This document shows positions 10,528 to 64,000 of a stretch of DNA of 64,000 bases, piece after piece. Position numbers and translations under genes: made by a program. Position 1 is the first letter of the stretch; each line of letters begins with the position of its first letter. The DNA is from Leucoraja ocellata (Eukaryota): positions 2,604,001 through 2,668,000 of the forward strand of contig JAWMAR010000289.1 of NCBI GenBank assembly GCA_036785375.1. The letters are read 5' to 3'. The notes beneath the pieces were generated by a model. The model was not told where the DNA came from and did not search any database. It saw only the letters and a program-made list of their open reading frames with translations.

Positions 10528-10630
10528 CTGAGTTGGATGATCAGCCATGATCATATTGAATGGCGGTGCAGGCTCGAAGGGCCGAATGGCCTACTCCTGC
10601 ACCTAATTTCTATGTTTATATGTTTCTATG
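10528..10630 (+). mobile_element. CR1 3' tail fragment
   Basis: GATCAGCCATGATCATATTGAATGGCGGTGCAGGCTCGAAGGGCCGAATGG. Confidence 0.88.
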
Positions 10631-16539: not shown

Positions 16540-16923
16540 TATAGATACATATAAAATCCTTAAAGGATAAGACAGGCTAGATGCAGGAAAAATGTTCTCA
16601 ATGTTGGGGGAGTCTAGAACCAGGGGTCACAGTTTAAGAATATGTGGTAGGCCATTTAGGACTGAGATGAGGAAAAACTTCTTCATCCAGAGAGTTGTGA
16701 ATTTGTGGAATTCTCTGCCACAGAAGGAAATGGAGGCCATTTCAGTGGATGTTTTCATGAGAGAGTTAGATTTAGCTCTTAGGGCTAAAGGAATTAAGGG
16801 ATATGGGGAAAAAGTAGGAACGGGGTACTGACTTTAGATGATCAGCAATTATCATATTGAATGGCGGTGCTGGCTCGAAGGGCCAAATCGCCTACTCCTG
16901 CATCTATTTTTCTATGTTTCTAT
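16540..16923 (+). mobile_element. CR1 LINE 3' end
   Basis: SRTRGHSLRI...RKNFF.QRVVNLWNSLPQ; TTCTATGT tail. Confidence 0.92.
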
Positions 16924-24976: not shown

Positions 24977-25060
24977 AGCCATGATCATATTGAATGGCGG
25001 TGCAGGCTCGAAGGGCCGAATGGTCTACTCCTGCACCTACTTTCTATGTTTCTATGTTTC
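24977..25060 (+). mobile_element. CR1 3' tail fragment, followed by a Penelope-terminus remnant to ~25150
   Basis: Same tail motif and TTCTATGT repeats. Confidence 0.85.
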
Positions 25061-26090
25061 AAAGAAGCTGCCTGACCCGCTTAGTTCCTCCAGCACGTTG
25101 TGCTCTACGTAAAATTCCAGCCTTTGCTGTTCCTTGTGTCTACATCTCTCTGTCTTTATTGTGGTTCTGTTCATCTGAAAGATAGGTAATTTCTTGACTC
25201 TTGACATTTTATGGACTATAAACGTAACAGAGCCCCACAACACACGTAATTTGATCAATCAGAGTCTGCCTTACACATGAAACCTTTTGCATATAGAGAC
25301 TTAATTTATGGTAAAATAAAAAGTTGTAAATTGTACAACCGTTGGATCATTTCTACAGGCGAAGCACATTCAAGCCACCATGCACATCAATCAGACCAAT
25401 AAACTACATTTTTATGATTATGAAATTTGCTTCAATGCAATCTAGATTTTGTTTTAAATGAATGATTCAATATGATTCAATACCCCTTCTGTTGGTCTCG
25501 TTTTTCATGTATTAGTACATCTGTTCAAAATGGTACTCATAATGAGAATATACCAAGAGTAACTGTGAATAATAAACACTAACAGATCGGAATGACATTA
25601 ATAATTTCATTATGGAGTGCTAGCAACTAATTGTGATCTTTAATTGCACACAGTTTTCTTTGCAGTTTTCAAGGTTCAAAAGAAATATGCACAACATCAG
25701 CAATATAAATGTAGATAGGCCCGGATGTTCTGCGTCAACAAAATAAAAATAAAAAATTCCTGTGGCTCAAAGCACATGTGTGTTGGAGTTCTCACCCTCA
25801 AAACATTCTATTGGACCCAAGGCCCAAGGCGTTGTGGACTGCAGAATTAGTCTCACATACTTTGTTTGCAGAAATGTCTGTCTGCTGCACACTTTGTCAC
25901 CGGCAGGTTTAAAGCAATCCTGGGTATGGTGAGTGGTGTTAGAGGGATAGCATGGGTCAGGTGTTGCAAAACTTGGTTTATGGTGCAGAGACGTCCCGGA
26001 GTTGAGAGGCTTCAGTCAGGGAAGGAGGAGAGGGACCAGAGCCACAATAGTCAGTTTGGGGAAATACAGGAGAGGGCTGGATGGTTGTTG

Positions 26091-26876
26091 CCTCTCCTGG
26101 ACTGTGGAGGAGAGGCTTGTGTACTCCAGTGATCCTGAGAGCTAGGCCGGATGGGGTTTCATAACTCTGGCAGGTTCAACCAATCCTGACAGGTCTCAGG
26201 TGAGGAGGCAGACGAAGCAGTCCCTGGTCCTCCAGGTTGGGGGTTGGGCGTGGGGTTAACTACCCCACCCTGGAAAAAAGTGTGAGTTACAGAAACTTCG
26301 ACAAATAAAAACCAAATTACACACTTGGTTGAAGAAGATGCCCCAGCGATGGGGAACATGACGCTTCCCAGCCAAACCAGCAAGGGCGCTGGGAAGCTGA
26401 CACACCTTCTGACGGCAAAGAAATCCATCCTTGTGTGGACATGGAGCATCCGAACCATGGTCCAGGCTGGCAAGGCTGCCACAATTGCCAACTAAATGGT
26501 GCGCTACCATCTCTTAGTCCTAGGCTTGGCTGAAACAAGATGGACACAGTCAGGGGAGATCAAATTGGTCAGCGGGCAGTTCATTCTCTACTCTGGACAG
26601 GAAGAGGAGGGAGCGAAGAAAATGGAGTTGGATTGGACACACCCTCAGGAAACCTGCCACAAACATCACCCGGCAAGCCCTGAAATGGAACCTCCAAGGA
26701 AAAAGGAAAAGTGGTTGCCCCAGGAACAGCTGGTGAAGAGGTGTCCAGGCAGAAATGTCCGAGAGTGGGCTCAACTGGGGAGTTCTCAAAATAACTGCTG
26801 ACAACCGAGTGAGGTGGGGAACATTTGTCAAAGGCCTATGCTCCCTAGAGGTGCAAAGGGCTTAAGAAGAAGAAGA
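26091..26876 (+). mobile_element. Internally deleted (bipartite) RTE-clade non-LTR element with both ends intact
   Basis: 12-bp TSD GGATGGTTGTTG at 26079-26090 and 26877-26888. APE endonuclease start (GTWSIRTM...LGLAETRW...ILYSG) is fused at ~26614 to the RT C-terminus ([10 protein letters not shown]...RQALKWN). (AGA)n tail. Confidence 0.9.
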
Positions 26877-29499
26877 GGATGGTTGTTGGCTGGTGCGAGG
26901 TGCGATGGGGTCCAAGGAAAACCCCAGTGATGGGCAAGCACATATTTTAAAGGGGTGTGGTTCTTAGTGCTGGCCAGTGCCTTGAACCTGGTCAAACTGA
27001 TCCTCTTTAGGTTTTGCTGAATCATAGGATCATGATCTGCTTCTGCCCGAGTGACCTGTGCCAACGCTAATGAATTTTGTGCATGAATGTAAATACATGT
27101 TGAATATTGCAGGATATCACTGTGTCCCCAACCACTGGATGAGGCCATTTGTTTGGAGGATCAAGAAACTATTTGACAAAGCTCACAAAGCCTGCAATTT
27201 GCATTTAATTGCTCAGCTATCAATTTGCCAATGAAGTTTTCTTGTGCATTGCACATTTCATCACTCCCGTGGGTGATATAATCACCATGTCAGTCTCTAC
27301 TCATCCTAAAACAGTTTGAAAAACTGTGAATACCTTTTACAAAAGCACCTATTACAAGAGAGTATGCAGCCGCTTTCCTTTGGAATTCCATAGCATTCCC
27401 ATCTCCAAACTCTCTCTCAGCTAACATTTATTACCAGTTCATCGACCATTAACACTATAGAGGTGGACCAACTGTCTACATCTCGTAGAGCAAAGAGCAA
27501 GACTAGACGCTTTCACTCTCCAGCAAATGGCTCACTGCCCACTCCCCAAAGTCCTTCCACTATCTTAAAGGCATATTAAGCAGACATATAAACATCATTG
27601 GATTTAAAGCGGCAATTAACAATGAGATCAATCAGTTCTACTAAAAAGATCAAAGGTGTTAAATGGGAACAATCATTTGTATCAACCAGGGAACATGTGT
27701 TATTTTGTATTTCCAGGTTACTTGTGTAGAGTTTCAGTTCTCAGCATGATCAATGATTGGATGATTAAACAATGATTATGGCTAATATTGCACCTCTCTT
27801 AATTACATTCAAGATCACTTGGACACTGACACAGTTAAAGTCTTCATACACCAGAAGTAGTTTCAGAAAGCAGCTTTTTAAAAATCGATACGACTTTAAA
27901 AATAGTACTCTTATGTATTTATAGTTGTAACTTGGTGCTGTAAGTGGGGTTATCACAAGAAAAGTGAGCATTTTTAATATATTTGTCCAGTCTATTAAGT
28001 GCAATTTGCTTAATTTTAATTGTCATAGAAAAACATAAACAACTATAAGGAATCATTTCATAGTTACAGATGTGCACCAATCAGTTTTTCAGCTTTTTCT
28101 TCAAAATTATAGTCAAAACTGTTAATGCCTGTTATTTACCTAATGTACCCATTAAACTGATTCATGTTCAGAGTCTCCTCGAAGGCCAGCAAGCGCCAAC
28201 AATTAATGGAAACGTGCAATGATGATTAAATTGATTTGCCAATGTGGACAACTTTGGGGCGGGATTAGCTTCAAGAATAAAGTGTACTAGATTGGAATTA
28301 AAAAAATGCAGAAACTTGATCTCCACTGAACATAACTTGTGCTTAAAGTTTCACATTTGTTTACACGGGCTGGGATCAAATTGCACAAATAATCAATGCA
28401 GATAAATGGAAATTCAAGGCCTATATGTTTCCCTGCCAAAAGTTTCACTTTCTCGTTTTTCGTTTGATCAGATCTCACTGGTTCACTGATTTATACCTCA
28501 TTTCACTTAAGACACAGCTTTTGTTTAACCCTTGAGGAGCAATAAGTCTGGATTCACATTTACTATTGTGTATCATCTCTGGATATTGAATGATCTAATA
28601 AAACTTCAATTCTTCAGTGACCTTGTTTTGTACCAAATATTTCCACTTAATTCCCAAAGGTACAGACTTGGTGAAGTATGGATTCATTTGTGTTGATAGA
28701 CCTCCACTTTGTTGGGTAATGGCCAGCAAAAGGAACTATGAATGAATTTCTCTAATGTAATTCAAGAAAATTGTAGCCTTAGTGGTTAAGATCTACTAAC
28801 CTACAGACTGCGGATTTAATGGGACATTTTATATTTTTAGAACTCCAGTTTGGCCACTGGGGAGACTAAACATTTTTTCTTTAAATCATATTAGAGTTTT
28901 TTAAATACCTTTCCACAAAACCTAACTGTGCTTCGTCAGTGTACATTAAGAACAGGGGATCGAGATCTTAGGTGAAAGGAGGATTAGATTTTGATGTAAT
29001 TATCTTCCAGGGAAATAGTCTGGTTCCTCCTGCATGAATAATGGCCACTCAGGGAAGATTTAAAAGCAGAGGTGTAAGAGAAGAAATATATCTATTTTCT
29101 TTTGAAACAAAGCAATGAAGCATATGAATACTATTTCAAGTTTATCCCAAATGCAAAGATGTCCCATTTGGAATCCACCCATTTAAATGTGTCAAATAGA
29201 TCTGTCATAAGAGGGAAACTGATCTATTTAATTAAGCCCATTTGTTTTTCAGATGGCCTCTCTCAGTAGACTCTGTATATTAGATTCACACATTCTAACA
29301 TTTAGAAGCCAAGGGAAGAGAATATCAACCATGAAGTTTATATTTTCTTTTTGGAGGGATAGGAGAGCATTAAGTTGAGACGGGACAAAGTTCTTGCAAT
29401 GTGAAATGATGAGCAAAACACACACCTGGGAATGTTTGCCTTTGGTTGACCCCAAGGCAATTCTGGTCAGCCTCCACTACAACATCAATGACTTGAAGT

Positions 29500-34611: not shown

Positions 34612-34872
34612 GAGTTTTCACACAGAGAGTGGTGAATCTCTGGAACTCTCTGCCACAGAGGGTAGTTGAGGCCAGTTCATTGGCTATATTTAAGAGGGAG
34701 TTAGATGTGGCCCTTGTGGCTAAGGGGATCAGGGGGTATGGAGAGAAGGCAGGTACGGGATACTGAGTTGGATGATCAGCCATGATCATATTGAATGGCG
34801 GTGCAGGCTCGAAGGGCAGAATGGCCTACTCCTGCACCTAATTTCTATGTTTCTATGTTTCTATGACTCTAT
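34612..34872 (+). mobile_element. CR1 LINE 3' end (young)
   Basis: Near-identical to 63720-63958; (TTTCTATG)n tail. Confidence 0.92.
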
Positions 34873-37230: not shown

Positions 37231-37801
37231 GACAATAATATTGTAGGTGTTGAAGGAGATGGAAACATCAGAAGAAACTTAATGTAAGCTTCATGATGCA
37301 TATTAATACTGATGCACGTGATGCAGGAGCCATTCTCCATTGTCAAACTTGACTGTTCACATTTCTCACATATATCTATATATTTAAGATATGAATCAAA
37401 CAGATTCTTTGATTATTATTCAGCTATGTGGTAGGAAAGAACCCAAAAATACCATTACATCAAGGCCAGCTTATAATATTAACTCTAAAACCTGACCTGC
37501 AACTTTTTTGTAAAATGTACATATATTAATGTATACAAATCAATCTTGCCACATGTTGTTATGCAAAAGTTGATAAAATGATTGTAACAAGAAGTGAAGG
37601 CTGGTGCAAAAGGGATGCCTGGCAATGTAATCATTTGGCTGATGTGGGAAACTCTGGTTCTGTTTTAAAGCAACGTTAATTGGAATACATCTGCACAATC
37701 AACAGTGAGAAAAAATGGTTGGTGGCTCTGGGATCAACTTGACTTCTTTAACTATCATCTGAACAACATCTAAACAACGTACACATTAACATGAACTCCA
37801 A

Positions 37802-37956
37802 GAGAGACACAAAAAGGTTGAGTAACTCAACGGGTCAAGCAGCATCTCTGGAGAAAAGGAATTCCTTCTCGCCAGAGATGCTGCCTGACCTGCTGAGTTA
37901 CTCCAGCCTTTTGTGTCTGTCTTCGGTTCAAACCAGCAACTGCAGCTTCTCCCTAC
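37802..37956. mobile_element. Palindromic Penelope-terminus derivative with 13-bp TSD, core deleted at the centre
   Basis: ACATGAACTCCAA at 37789-37801 and 37957-37969. Inverted arms meet at AAGGAATTCCTT. Confidence 0.87.
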
Positions 37957-39863
37957 ACATGAACTCCAATGTTTGTTCATATTGCAGCATCATAGTAACT
38001 GACCTGAGCCACTCAGAATTATTATTCCTTTCTGCTTGGAAAATTAACACTTTCAAGAGCAAAAAGGTGAGTTAATACTTCGTTATGTTTTACTTGCTAA
38101 AGTACGGAAATACTTTCAGATATGAGAGAATCTAAAGCCTACGCTTTCACCTAGTAGAGGAATGCCTTTAGCATTCTTGTTAACCTATGTATGGTGTTTG
38201 ATGTAATCTGTACTGTGTCAAGGTACTTTGATTGTTTACTGCAACTAGTACAACTGTACACAGTTTGCAGAACACACATCCTACAGTGTACATACTGTAG
38301 CAGTTGAGTATATGTTGTTATTCTTGAGACAGAGAGCCAGCTGTTTCAGTGCGAGCCTACAGTGCATAAAACAGTCCCGTTGATCTGGCCTCCAGGTCTT
38401 AAACACAACTAATTTTTCATGCTCGACAAGCAGCTCACTCTGCTATATCTTCGAAAGTGAATAAATATTAGAACTTGTGAGCATGCAATCGCTGAGAATG
38501 TTTTTTCCCAGGTTATCCATTCCTGCAATCAAAGAGCTGGCTCTTGTAGCAAACTGCTGTTACAATAGTGTTAAATGCAATAAGAAGGCAGTGCCCCCTT
38601 GTTTACAGGGGAAAGGCCTGAACAAAATGCCTTTGAACTGAGTAAGTAGTTGAAATGTGATTTATACCAAGCATCATTTATTTCCCTCCAACATATAATT
38701 TTGTTAACGAGAAAGAATCAATGAATCTAACGAAGTAGACTAACACTATAAGGTTAATCTGAGATTGTCATTTATGTCAAAGTAGCAGAGTAAATTTGTA
38801 AATTTTGCATAAAAACAAGACTTTACACCTTCCCTCCCCATCTGCAACCTCCCACCCCCCCACCCTCCCCCAACAAAAGGCAGTCATAGTTTTGTGGAAA
38901 AGCAACACCCGAAAACAGAGGTTAAAGTTGTAAATTAAGCATTAGGCCCACTATTACAGCACTACATCGACTTCACATGGCACAGCACAATGAAAGATTT
39001 AGTGACTGTACACAGTGTTAATACAGTAGTGAGCCAGGCACAATTTAACACTTTCCTTTCATTAAAAAATGGAAAAGAATCTATTCATTATGAAATAAAC
39101 TAATGTTCTAAGATTATTCTTAATTTGTTGTGATTCATTCATTCAAAGCTTACATTCTTAAATCCATTCATAAAGTATAATAATTTAGGAAGTTCCCTTT
39201 CCTCTTTCTATTTATTCTGCATGAACTCTACAACACTAAGAATTGCAGGCATTTATGAAAAATACCATCAAGGGCCAATTACTATTCCCAGGGCACACCC
39301 ATAGACTGGTTCCCAATGAAAACAATTGCATTCTAATTTAACTAATAATTTATGACCAGTTGACTTGACAGCCTCTTGCAGGCAAAAACAGCTATTAAAA
39401 GTAACTGATGCTATAATTACAAAATATAAATCTCCAGATGTTACCATTACTGCAAAAGGTTTAGTCACCTGCCAGCATTTCTTAGCCCTGTCAGACTAAT
39501 AGTTTATTGATTCACTGTTGACTATAAACCAAATATATTTAGAAGTTGATTTTATTTGAGACCATGATCTTCAAGACATTTGAGAACCAAATACTACTGA
39601 TACTTTCAATGACAAATGACTTTACATTTCAAACAAGATAATTTTATGAGGAAATAGATGAACTTCAAAACTATCTAAAAGTCTTTGAACTCAGGTCTTT
39701 ACATTTCTTTCCTGCTGCAGCTGTTTGAGCTTCTTCTGAATTCAAGAATCTTCCTCTATTATTCAGCAACAATTCTGGAGGTGCAAAGCATATGAACAGG
39801 ATAGATCTCATCCCACCATGCGTGCATCTGCTAAATTCTATGACCACACATCAAACACTGGTA

Positions 39864-40857
39864 CAGTGCCCACCATAATGTTTGGGACAAAGACCCATAA
39901 TTTATTTATTTGCCTCTGTACTCCACAATTTGAGATTTGTAATTTAAAAAAAAATCACATGTGGTGAAACTGAACATTGTCAGATTTTAATAAAGGCCAT
40001 TTTAATACATTTTGGTTTCACCATGTAGAAATTACAGCAGTGTGTATACATTTTTCCAGAACTGTGGTTGCTCTTTTAAGTACTTCTTGGCAAACTGTAA
40101 CCTGGCCATCCTATTTTTGCAGCTAACGGCGGTTTGCATCTTGCAGTATAGCCTCTGTATTTCTGTTCATGAAGTCTTCTGCAGACAGTGGTTATTAACA
40201 CATCCACACCTGACTCCTGAAGAGTGTTTCTGATCTCTCGGACAGGCTTTTGGGGATTTTTCTTTATTATAGAGAGAATTCTTCTGTCATCAGCTGTGGA
40301 GGTCTTCCCTGGCCTGCCAGTCCCTTTACGATTAGTAAACTCACCAGTGCTCTCTTTCTTCTTAATGACGTTCCAAACAATTGATTTTGGTAAGCTTAAG
40401 GTTTGGCTGATGTCTCCAACAGTTTTATTCTTGGTCCTCGGTCTCATAATGGTTTATTTGGCTTTCATTGGCACAACTTTGGTCCTCATGTTGATAAACA
40501 GCAATAAAAGTTTCCAAAGGTAATGGAAAGACTGGAGGAAAGACTAGGTCATGAGAGCTCTCTTATACGTGCGTTAAGGAGGTATTTAAACACACCTGAG
40601 CAATTCCAAACGCCTATGAAGCCATGTGTCCCAAAAATTATGGTGCTCTGAAGTGGGGGGGGGGGGGGGCTATGTATAAACACAGCTATAATTTCTACAT
40701 GGTGAAACTAAAATGTATAAAAATGGCCTTTATTAAAATCTGACAATGTATACTTTAATCACATGTGATTTTTTTCTATTAAAAATCTCAAATTGTGGAG
40801 TACAGAGGCAAATAAATAAATGATGAGTCTTTGTCCCAAAGATTATGGCGGGCACTG
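39864..40857 (-). mobile_element. Tc1/mariner DNA transposon, internally deleted
   Basis: TA-CAGTGCCC...GGGCACTG-TA with ~170-bp inverted termini. Transposase N-terminus from ATG at 40489 with an early TAA. Paired-like HTH and GRPR-like GRPGKTS motif. DDE domain absent. Confidence 0.95.
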
Positions 40858-41319
40858 TATGGATCAACTCAGGTCAATAAAAGAAGACAATATTTAATCC
40901 CAAGCCCAATAGTTAAGTGCTTATGTCATACTGGCAGAGATAATGAATGTTTCTTGCACATGCTTGTAGTGTGTGATCAAGACAGTTCCAATTGATTTGG
41001 AACCCTTATTTATACCATATTTCTTTACAACATTGGAGCATATTTCAGCCTATGGAATGTATCCAGGCTCACAGAGCAATTCCATTCTCTCAATAAATTT
41101 CCCTGCAACCTTCCCTTCTCTCCAGACTCCCATCATACCTCCCCATATTCCACCACTCCCCGACATACCATGAGAGATTTATGGTAGCCAGAAAATAGGG
41201 GGAACCTATGCAAGAAAAACATACTAACTCCACACAGGTAACTCCTGAGGTGTGAGGAAACATCACTACTATCTGTGCCACTCAGTTCCTTTGATGGTTA
41301 CTTTATTCCCTCCATTCTG

Positions 41320-54724: not shown

Positions 54725-54984
54725 ACTCTAATGCAGGGATCATTCTGGTAAACCTCCTATGCCTTCTCTTTCCACTTGTGTTGCCACTTTCACGAAGTTC
54801 TGGATTTGGACCCCAGGATCCCTCTGTACATCATTGCTGTTAAGGGTCATGCCATTAATTTTATATGTTTCCCTTCCATTTGACATCCCAAAGAACAACA
54901 CTCACAAATTTGATCGGCCATTTCTCCAACCATTACTTGTAGCTCATCAATATCCTGCTGTATACTTTGACAGCCTTTCTCACA

Positions 54985-58827: not shown

Positions 58828-59442
58828 AGGGCCTGTCCCACTTACATGTCCTTGGCACACAAATTACGCAAACAGCCCCGCGAAGGTCGGGCGCGATTTC
58901 ATGTGTCCGCAAAGTCGTCTGGAACGCGTGACGTTATTTGAAGATGGACACAAAGCTGGAGTAACTCAGCGGGACCGGCAGCATCTCTGGAGAGAGCAAT
59001 GGGTGACGTTTCGTGTCAAGACTTCTTCAGTCTGAAATGATGCTGCCGGTCCCGCTGAGTTACTCCAGCATTTTGTGTCTATCTTCAATTTTCTTGCCCG
59101 CGCTCTGGGAGTAGAAGTGGGAGCGGATCCGGACCGCAACGGCCGTGAGCCCCAGGCCGAGCTCGGCGATCGTTTGCCTGCTTCTGCTGCTGTTGGAGGT
59201 GAGACGTTACGTCGCGCCAGGGTCTTGGGTCTGTCCCACTTTGGCCGTCAGTTCCGCGACAGGCCGTTGGCGCGTGAAGATTTCGTTCACTACAAAGATT
59301 TTGGAGCCCCGCGCGATGACGCGCACAACTCCGTGCTTCTCAGTGGGACCGCCCCGCGCAGTCGTACGATGCCCATGCGCCTCAACGCGACCACGAGGTT
59401 GCGTAATTTGCGTGCCATGGACCCGTAAGTGGGACAGGCACT
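58828..59442. mobile_element. PIF/Harbinger-type MITE containing a palindromic Penelope-derived segment (~58937-59088)
   Basis: TIR AGGGCCTGTCCCACTTAC... / ...GTAAGTGGGACAGGCACT, about 45 bp and imperfect. TTA TSD at 58825-58827 and 59443-59445. Confidence 0.9.
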
Positions 59443-63577: not shown

Positions 63578-63960
63578 ATACAAAGAAACTTACAAAATTC
63601 TTAAGCGGTTGGACAGGCTAGATGCAGGAAGATTGTTCCCGATGTTGGGGAAGTCCAGAACAAGGGGTCACAGTTTAAGGATAAGGGGGAAGTCTTTTAG
63701 GACCGAGATGAGAAAAACATTTTTCACACAGAGAGTGGTGAATCTCTGGAATTCTCTGCCACAGAAGGTAGTTGAGGCCAGTTCATTGGCTATATTTAAG
63801 AGGGAGTTAGATGTGGCCCTTGTGGCAAAAGGGATCAGGGGGTGTGGAGAGAAGGCAGGTACAGGATACTGAGTTGAATGATCAGCCATGATCATATTGA
63901 ATGGCGGTGCAGGCTCAAAGGGCTGAATGGCCTACTCCTGCACCTATTTTCTATGTTTTT
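63578..63960 (+). mobile_element. CR1 LINE 3' end (young)
   Basis: ETYKILK.LDRLDAG..FPMLG.SRTRGHSLRIRG...QRVVNLWNSLPQ. Confidence 0.93.
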
Positions 63961-64000
63961 ACATCTGAGCCAAAGTACATGCCCCCAACTGCTCACAGTA

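Follow-up and report, generated by a model that had tools for sequence, protein, structure and literature searches.

Self-cleaving ribozymes resembling that of hepatitis delta virus (HDV) reportedly stand at the 5′ ends of RTE retrotransposons, a finding that other papers credit to Ruminski in 2011, and HDV variants of the subtype discussed here are said, in a paper citing the work, to have been described by Weinberg in 2015. Both the ribozyme core and its place at RTE 5′ ends are already known in kind. Fungal HDV variants, according to the sections of Li and Breaker (2017; PMC5640933) drawn on here, escape standard descriptors; they are marked by a C-G pair where cleavage occurs, by one additional base (mostly C) separating P2 from P3 and by an E-loop in P4, and two examples cleave at the base of P1. 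In the relevant parts of Luo et al. (2026; PMC13635239), the rate given for a C. briggsae variant, which has C at position 1 and a weak P1.1, is 9.3 per minute, an HDV ribozyme of phage (Ackermannviridae) has a U·U pair in P1.1, and C75 and G25 are essential, with rates of 4–9 per minute. Bipartite, non-autonomous RTE long interspersed nuclear elements (LINEs) that keep only their 5′ and 3′ parts are described in the portion of Kojima (2018; PMC5786205) that concerns us. We analysed a 64,000-nucleotide stretch of the Leucoraja ocellata genome (contig JAWMAR010000289.1; the whole stretch is called the window, and all features given below lie on its + strand), which contains a 786-bp insert at 26091–26876, an internally deleted, bipartite, non-coding RTE-type retrotransposon copy. 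Its 5′ leader is, with high probability, a damaged version, short of 11 bases, of a leader that in its intact form is a predicted HDV-type self-cleaving ribozyme likely to cut before C26091; the copy itself is likely inactive.

The insert is bounded by a 12-bp target-site duplication (TSD), 26079–26090 being identical to 26877–26888 while the flanks beyond differ on both sides, and sequencing read depth climbs at 26089 and drops at 26880, matching the element's edges. The first base of the element is C26091; G26090, which precedes the predicted cut, is the last base of the left TSD, that is, target DNA. An earlier note on this DNA had seen here the structured 5′ leader of an RTE element, and the TSD, the boundary and the homologues described below bear this out. 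The same note held that the leader fits no recognised fold. We disagree: intact copies fit an HDV-like fold, the pseudoknot helix P2 (26099–26105 with 26217–26223) having been missed. That fold is hidden in the window copy because 11 nucleotides, which span P3 together with the end of P2 and the larger part of L3, are missing. Four contigs from three sequencing runs (X2, X6 and X15) have 11 extra bases behind 26103, and the loose ends of 19 RNA reads of run X22 finish in the same 11-nt motif. What the window copy lacks is the last two bases of P2, the extra base, the 5′ strand of P3 and the first five bases of L3. With these restored, the order of the leader is P1, one linker base, P2, the extra base, P3 with a 7-nt L3, the 3′ strand of P1, one P1.1 base (26116), a long P4, C-G-A-A (26213–26216) and the 3′ strand of P2 (26217–26223), which is the nested double pseudoknot of HDV.

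In the window, the 5′ strand of P1 (26091–26097) pairs at seven of seven positions with the 3′ strand (26109–26115), its first pair being C26091-G26115 and C26091 the predicted first base after self-cleavage. The one-base J1/2 linker of the window family is 26098. It is followed by the remnant of the P2 5′ strand (26099–26103, directly behind which the 11 nucleotides are absent), with which the copy keeps five native P2 pairs; the opposite strand was placed by comparing pairing within and across families. Alignment to homologues identifies 26104–26108 as the last two bases of L3 and the 3′ strand of P3, which have no partner here. The extra base between P2 and P3 is A in this family. The P1.1 pyrimidine, 26116, has likewise lost its partner, the third base of L3, to the deletion, and C26213 in the J4/2 strand is the predicted catalytic cytosine, equivalent to C75. 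With U20, the P1.1 partner and the 5′ strand of P3 gone, and P3, L3 and P1.1 no longer intact, the window copy would not form an active site; it is likely an inactive, decayed copy. Its sequence also folds no better than shuffled versions (z = −0.36; 67 of 200 shuffles fold as well), and since its folding energy is at chance level, the support for the structure comes from homologues.

These were collected with a search pattern that fixed only P3 and L3, two short linkers and one 5-nt strand (the bulged strand of the kink-turn-like loop discussed below), so that P1, P2, P1.1, J4/2 and most of P4, which were left free, serve as tests. At least 112 metagenome loci matched, out of a total estimated at about 440. 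Of the 112 listed, 82 were long enough for full-length analysis (30 were too short) and formed 40 clusters at 85% identity; four loci (L011, L043, L021 and L024), making up three of the 40 clusters, had no model match and were dropped, which left 37 cluster representatives. Rows for two alignments, A1 (28 rows) and A2 (27), were picked by hand and are mostly well formed. A model from which the window was left out gives 26092–26220 a score of 90.1 bits, the next best match in the 64 kb reaching 15.6 bits, and it matches 47 of 51 further metagenome loci. When the pattern was run on prokaryote genomes as a control, nine of the 10 matches scored at most 17.3 bits or nothing, and one was a 1-kb contig with a full leader. 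L237, a 1-kb contig in a bacterial metagenome-assembled genome and probably eukaryotic contamination, holds two leaders in tandem (145–298 and 368–521), the second without the catalytic C and L3 yet with P4 and its kink-turn-like loop. An endonuclease open reading frame (ORF) lies downstream of the leader in L016, L032, L074 and L007, above Pfam cut-offs, and in L013, below them; a sixth homologous locus carries a reverse transcriptase (RT) fragment there.

P1.1 is formed by the third base of L3 and the base after P1. Both were free in the search, and among the 112 loci listed they make a Watson-Crick pair in 106 (G-C in 54, A-U in 52, other combinations in 6). On a 27-leaf tree computed with the P1.1 columns masked, the pair has switched between G-C and A-U at least five times independently, and its covariation has an E-value of about 0 under a tree null on the MAFFT alignment. 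P1 pairs in 16 of 37 own-family comparisons as against 70 of 1332 cross-family ones, and P2 in 20 of 30 as against 62 of 870, neither figure being reached in 20000 permutations; seven of the eight P2 pairs change on both sides. The J4/2 motif C-N-A-A is invariant in the 27 rows of A2, which were chosen as well formed, and is present in 30 of the 37 representatives. At the predicted cleavage site the pair is C-G in 16 of the 18 representatives with a fully paired P1. The extra base between P2 and P3 is C in most of 27 rows and in 21 can pair with the G after C-N-A-A. P3 with an L3 holding U20·G25 is carried by copies of the window family through the 11-nt insertion, and is fixed by the pattern in the homologues; Repbase 5′ ends of RTE1_LA and RTE1-N1b_LA, compared by eye in the part of the supplement of PMC5786205 that holds them, show the same layout with a compensated P3, outside the pattern. 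An HDV-like ribozyme has a P1 of 6–7 bp at the cleavage site, P3 and L3, P1.1, a catalytic C and, after J4/2, the P2 pseudoknot, and the homologues carry counterparts of all of these in HDV order.

Taken as a whole, the structure has 90.1% of cells paired and two-sided change in 28 of 38 pairs when 27 rows are aligned by sequence alone, and its covariation score of 0.471 (shuffles, 0.229 ± 0.012) is reached by none of 500 shuffles, a control that ignores relatedness among the rows. Under a tree-based null on 28 rows, four pairs reach E ≤0.05, in P1.1, Pd, the triloop hairpin and P4a; when 47 rows are aligned to the model, every one of the top 18 pairs by score is a pair of the structure, and five have E ≤0.05, in an alignment that leans towards the model except at P1.1, which lies outside it. 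Covariation of paired bases across RTE families, with conserved linkers between them, had been proposed and is borne out by these alignments. The proposal of a candidate ribozyme is supported too, in that the homologues yield an HDV-like predicted fold.

A different reading would build a new ribozyme class, or a switch, on a 9-bp hairpin at the start of the element together with a pairing of 26131–26137 with 26171–26177. Both helices can be drawn in the window copy, and Rfam is silent: 25800–26700 gave no relevant match, only seven weak, non-ribozyme hits far below the gathering score, and 20 homologous loci searched at permissive E-values gave one irrelevant hit and no twister. The hairpin is indeed complementary at nine of nine positions (26090–26098 with 26108–26116). 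Only seven of these pairs are native, forming the conserved P1, because G26090 is target DNA; the outer pairs are specific to this copy, and the 9-bp hairpin owes its existence to the 11-nt deletion and to a base of the target site. The second pairing, put forward as an alternative or pseudoknot, contains a U·U mismatch and finds no support among the homologues, where it is 74.6% paired as against 75.4% in shuffles (412 of 500 reach the value) and its covariation score is reached by 256 of 500; its bases form instead a covarying triloop hairpin (26173–26181). With all HDV elements present in order in intact copies, we consider a new class very improbable. A G1·Y first pair that would use G26090 was also tried and rejected, since across 33 insertions the position preceding P1 is not constant (T in 18, C in 6, G in 5 and A in 4) and C26116 covaries with L3.

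Whether the fold cuts is a separate matter. Two multi-copy families become conserved from the first base of P1 onwards, so the families' 5′ ends coincide with it; of the independent insertions, 25 of 31 in one family and 12 of 12 in the other have C there, and no upstream position has its commonest base in more than 17 of 31 and nine of 12. Several observations weigh against reading the leader as a damaged copy of a self-cleaving ribozyme. At 26103, where most records are clipped, contigs with the 11 extra bases account for the smaller part of the depth (24 of 286 in X2), and the gap may be either private to the window copy or common to a deletion-bearing subfamily. The conservation of P3, L3 and the bulged strand was set by the pattern and is no evidence; on the model-fitted 47-row alignment P1.1 reaches only E = 0.23; and seven of the 37 representatives are without C-N-A-A, 19 without a fully paired P1, many genomic copies being decayed. 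In another HDV-like ribozyme a one-base J1/2 spacer gave little activity (PMC4908430). In RNA run X22 read starts do not pile up, and 19 reads run uncut across the predicted site. Since in those crossing reads the upstream consensus carries a changed 5′ strand of P1, and the library is a fragmented poly(A) one, the run neither shows nor excludes cutting; its first mates fall mostly on the minus strand over 26089–26220, which fits sense transcription only if the library is stranded. One might accordingly suppose that an HDV-like fold is kept for 5′ protection, translation or protein binding and does not cleave, the 5′ end being set by an internal promoter. The one-base J1/2 and the crossing reads fit this, and in the part of PMC3383444 concerned the leader of L1Tc is reported as both promoter and ribozyme. 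That divergent families have jointly kept P1.1, the catalytic C and the U and G of L3 speaks for cleavage, as does a gap in L3 of SINE2-1_EC and ERE4B, the damage expected if an active ribozyme would behead a short interspersed nuclear element (SINE). We regard a fold that does not cleave as unlikely. The two SINEs, headed by tRNA and carrying an RTE leader, show by eye a one-base gap in L3 relative to the LINE in the sequences consulted from PMC5786205, and SINE2-1_EC keeps the P4 domain.

Returning to the predicted self-cleaving leader, its largest part is P4, a conserved branched domain of about 95 nucleotides, 91–101 in 25 of 30 representatives. It consists of a helix P4a, a 6×3 internal loop, a helix Pb and a three-way junction (Pc, Pd and the triloop hairpin Pe), and its unpaired linkers are conserved. 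An irregular top and the 5′ strand of P4a occupy 26117–26127; 26124–26127 and 26204–26207 pair at four of four positions as had been read before, and in homologues P4a is 95.8% paired with two-sided change at five of seven pairs. The bulged strand of the loop, 26128–26133, is a 3-nt bulge followed by G, A and U, and was fixed by the pattern, so that its conservation is not independent; the unbulged strand, 26201–26203 (3n U, 2n G, 1n A), was free. Pb has its 5′ strand at 26134–26143, paired with 26191–26200 as the non-canonical arm of the kink-turn-like loop, and includes the seven of seven pairs of 26134–26140 with 26194–26200 that the earlier note had drawn. The junction (26147–26188) has Pc at 26147–26151/26184–26188, Pd at 26153–26157/26163–26167 and Pe at 26173–26175/26179–26181; Pd and Pe covary at E ≤0.05 under tree nulls. 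Two helices had been proposed in this region. One, 26147–26152 with 26183–26188, is present with a C·U mismatch, other copies having G at 26187 and A at 26184; the other, between GGGGTT and AACTCT, stands as a helix one base off the covarying register of Pd. Folding energy alone is weak support for P4, because the z-score of the domain is near shuffle level in the window (−0.9; +0.04 to −3.6 in eight homologues, base shuffles).

The 6×3 loop of the window has the standard kink-turn consensus between two helices, a 3-nt bulge followed by G1b·A1n and A2b·G2n, with U·U at 3b-3n. Of 27 aligned homologues, 26 have A at 1n, and at 2n 10 have G and the other 17 have U; when positions are instead measured backwards from the catalytic C in 30 representatives, 27 have A at 1n and 28 have G or U at 2n. 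Set against this are the 17 of 27 homologues with U at 2n, 13 of which have C-G at 3b-3n, because of which the arm could be a plain Watson-Crick helix, and the block that A-U at 2b-2n places on folding in Kt-7, as the relevant part of PMC2790904 describes. For Kt-23 the same source states that G and U at 2n fold and C does not. On balance we lean, with some reserve, towards a real kink-turn; a role in docking a protein seems to us less probable than the kink-turn itself.

It is possible, although we do not favor it, that the core is an HDV-variant ribozyme and P4 only a neutral, stable insert with neither kink-turn nor protein partner. R2 ribozymes have a P4 that varies greatly or no P4 at all (PMC3774820), prokaryotic viral contigs carry the core without it, some animal-type loci (L092, L031 and L076) have a P4 of only 46–82 nt, and half of the homologues can close 2b-2n as A-U. 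The narrow length range in 25 of 30 representatives and the conserved unpaired linkers are not what a neutral insert would lead one to expect, nor is the restriction of 2n to G or U, the bases that fold in Kt-23, nor the retention of a kink-turn-like loop in shortened P4s, in which the bulged strand was selected by the pattern. Four loci with shortened P4 (L092, L076, L087 and L031; 46–82 nt) keep P4a and the loop and have partly or wholly lost the three-way junction.

Downstream of the ribozyme, homologue comparison delimits a further leader element at 26224–26268, made up of a conserved hairpin (26224–26249) and a variable one (26250–26268); 26250–26256 and 26262–26268 form a perfect hairpin by direct reading, in agreement with the first description of this DNA. 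The element is present in 14 of the 37 representatives, those with enough DNA, and the hairpin 26224–26249 is conserved with little two-sided change. A G-rich motif at 26240–26255 also ends Schistosoma twister sequences, and its 9-nt core occurs 1106 times in the supplement of PMC8501958. That paper has twister variants at the head of an RTE element, and one could suppose from this and from the common 3′-end motif that the leader is a twister-type ribozyme like that of Schistosoma Perere-3. The window leader has neither the twister core nor a match to the Rfam model, the 20 homologues gave no twister hit, the covarying pairs yield an HDV topology, and the motif in common lies downstream of the fold; this explanation is the least probable of those we considered. 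It may be that twister and HDV heads were exchanged in RTE lineages ahead of one downstream leader.

Behind the leader, an APE endonuclease frame (26358–26610, with in-frame ATGs at 26349 and 26358 and a stop at 26493–26495) begins by similarity to homologue ORFs and is ended by the internal deletion. The remnant is 51% identical over 37 amino acids to the ORF of L074 (E 2e-12), and tblastx matches it to L013, L016 and L074, whose ORFs match PF03372 or PF14529; a Pfam search of the three window frames themselves gave no match. The 3′ end of the element, 26617–26876, closes with an AAG-repeat tail read directly and followed by the right TSD copy (26877–26888), and it is 10–20 times deeper than the leader in two DNA runs. 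Loose read ends at 26610 and 26617 indicate that longer elements extend upstream of the 3′ part, the junction of the two parts lying near 26610–26617. There a deep contig carries 11 more bases (depth 449/754), so that one copy shows two 11-nt losses, here and behind 26103. An APE frame directly after the leader, a TSD, a short-repeat tail and an internal deletion are together the architecture of bipartite RTE elements; the copy itself is without RT, and we would assign it to the clade from this architecture and from the likeness of its leader to RTE1_LA. No second copy was found within the window by blastn, and a weak model match at 54763–54904 (15.6 bits, E 0.004) is probably due to chance. 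Other dispersed repeats, 3′-nested and 80–98% alike, lie at 34615–34865, 63584–63961, 16543–16923, 10528–10630 and 24977–25060 and are likely LINE or SINE 3′ ends; there are also self-complementary elements of 140–150 bp resembling miniature inverted-repeat transposable elements (MITEs) at 946–1082, 37792–37930 and 58938–59088, and a MITE-like 190-bp inverted pair at 39862–40051 and 40672–40859.

We suggest that read-through RNA would fold P1 to P4 and be cut before C26091, freeing the element from host RNA. Judging from the sections of PMC5640933 and PMC13635239 cited above, a core that opens with a C-G pair, has an extra base between P2 and P3 and forms a P1.1 of one pair plus U·U should cleave, the J4/2 cytosine presumably acting as the general acid. 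Because the cleaved RNA would have no cap, its 5′ end is probably shielded by the compact fold; the product would be translated from an ATG about 260–340 nt in and then reverse-transcribed, which would account for 5′ ends at P1. The 6×3 loop may act as a kink-turn bending P4 back, and may dock an L7Ae-family protein such as 15.5K, or an RTE protein, and so assist folding, template selection or translation of the single ORF, which lies about 270–320 nt downstream. More tentatively, we imagine a broad lineage of RTEs, spanning arthropod- and marine-invertebrate-type loci, fish-like genomes and the elephant element RTE1, in which a C-first HDV-variant ribozyme scaffolds a P4 made of a kink-turn and a three-way junction; this domain would dock a host protein of the 15.5K/L7Ae family or an RTE protein on newly cleaved, uncapped RNA and license its translation or reverse transcription. 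On this view the same core occurs without P4 in phages, and twister-headed RTEs swapped the ribozyme before the same leader.

The defined 5′ end and single-ORF translation of RTE/BovB-type LINEs, a clade known for horizontal transfer, are poorly settled, and the leader now offers a covariation-backed structure open to single-base checks at the catalytic C, by a P1.1 swap and at the kink-turn G and A. The homologues suggest that vertebrate genomes hold many HDV-variant ribozyme copies missed by Rfam. They link RTE leaders to an active, crystallised ribozyme subtype, and the damage to L3 in RTE-derived SINEs may find its explanation in the fold. Gene writing already makes use of an RTE element, its untranslated regions tuned empirically in the part of PMC13708176 that concerns them. 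The window copy is likely dead and ordinary; the value lies in a family-wide P4 domain with a predicted kink-turn.

That conserved, covarying, branched P4 of about 95 nt with its likely kink-turn is the part that we did not find described. Among titles and the opening lines of abstracts we found nothing on this leader in BovB/Rex3/Expander-type elements, on a branched P4 or on a kink-turn within it, although the works of Ruminski in 2011 and Weinberg in 2015 and the fungal alignment may contain such sequences; our literature search also returned no report of a kink-turn inside a natural HDV-like ribozyme or RTE leader, and the main text of a 2026 ribozyme screen names none of RTE, BovB, Expander and Rex. 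Kojima's conserved "Ceph" RTE domain, considered as a counterpart of P4, is by eye a different, more internal sequence in the part of PMC5786205 that gives it. Theta ribozymes were likewise set aside, being minimal, without P4 and next to phage tRNA, whereas P4 is large here. Prokaryotic viral contigs (L001: 1183–1247(−) and 444–509(−); L114–L233) do hold a minimal core without P4, with a C-first P1, the same L3 and a G-C P1.1; it occurs at 120 loci as 60 distinct strings, often just before a gene, several having a clear P1 and P2 by eye and the largest group no clear P2. None of 17 such loci scanned has a tRNA beside it, for which reason we do not class this core as theta-type.

The core of the leader matches a known, active HDV-variant subtype, from which cleavage would follow by analogy. 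Like the fungal variants, as the sections of PMC5640933 used here present them, it has C-G at the predicted cleavage site and an extra base between P2 and P3. An E-loop replaces part of P4 in the fungal RNAs; a conserved irregular loop tops P4 in the RTE leader. Unlike those RNAs, which the same sections tie to no retrotransposon, the leader marks a retrotransposon 5′ end and carries a P4 of about 95 branched nucleotides. With the C. briggsae and Ackermannviridae ribozymes, in the portions of PMC13635239 that describe them, it has in common a C at position 1 (C. briggsae) and a P1.1 of one Watson-Crick pair plus U·U or C·U; those RNAs, at about 70 nt judged from construct lengths, are unlike it in size, and the main text of that paper, so far as it bears on them, mentions no retrotransposon and describes no G-C version of P1.1. 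The 6×3 loop resembles Kt-7, Kt-23 and box C/D kink-turns, as treated in parts of PMC2790904 and PMC5579392, in its 3-nt bulge followed by G·A and A·G (or A·U, as in Kt-23), in a mostly C-G pair at −1b/−1n and, in the window copy, in U·U at 3b-3n. As in the bipartite RTEs of Kojima (PMC5786205), the 5′ end has been retained, and RTE1_LA-type leaders have the same layout; that paper, in the portion concerned, cites ribozyme predictions and gives no structure for the leader. Like the known HDV-like ribozymes of retrotransposons, finally, the RTE leader starts at the element's 5′ junction and would serve release from a co-transcript and help translation, and it differs from them in where it has grown: Agam-2-1 and R2 carry a large insert in J1/2, whereas here J1/2 is mostly 1–4 nt and the insert lies in P4.

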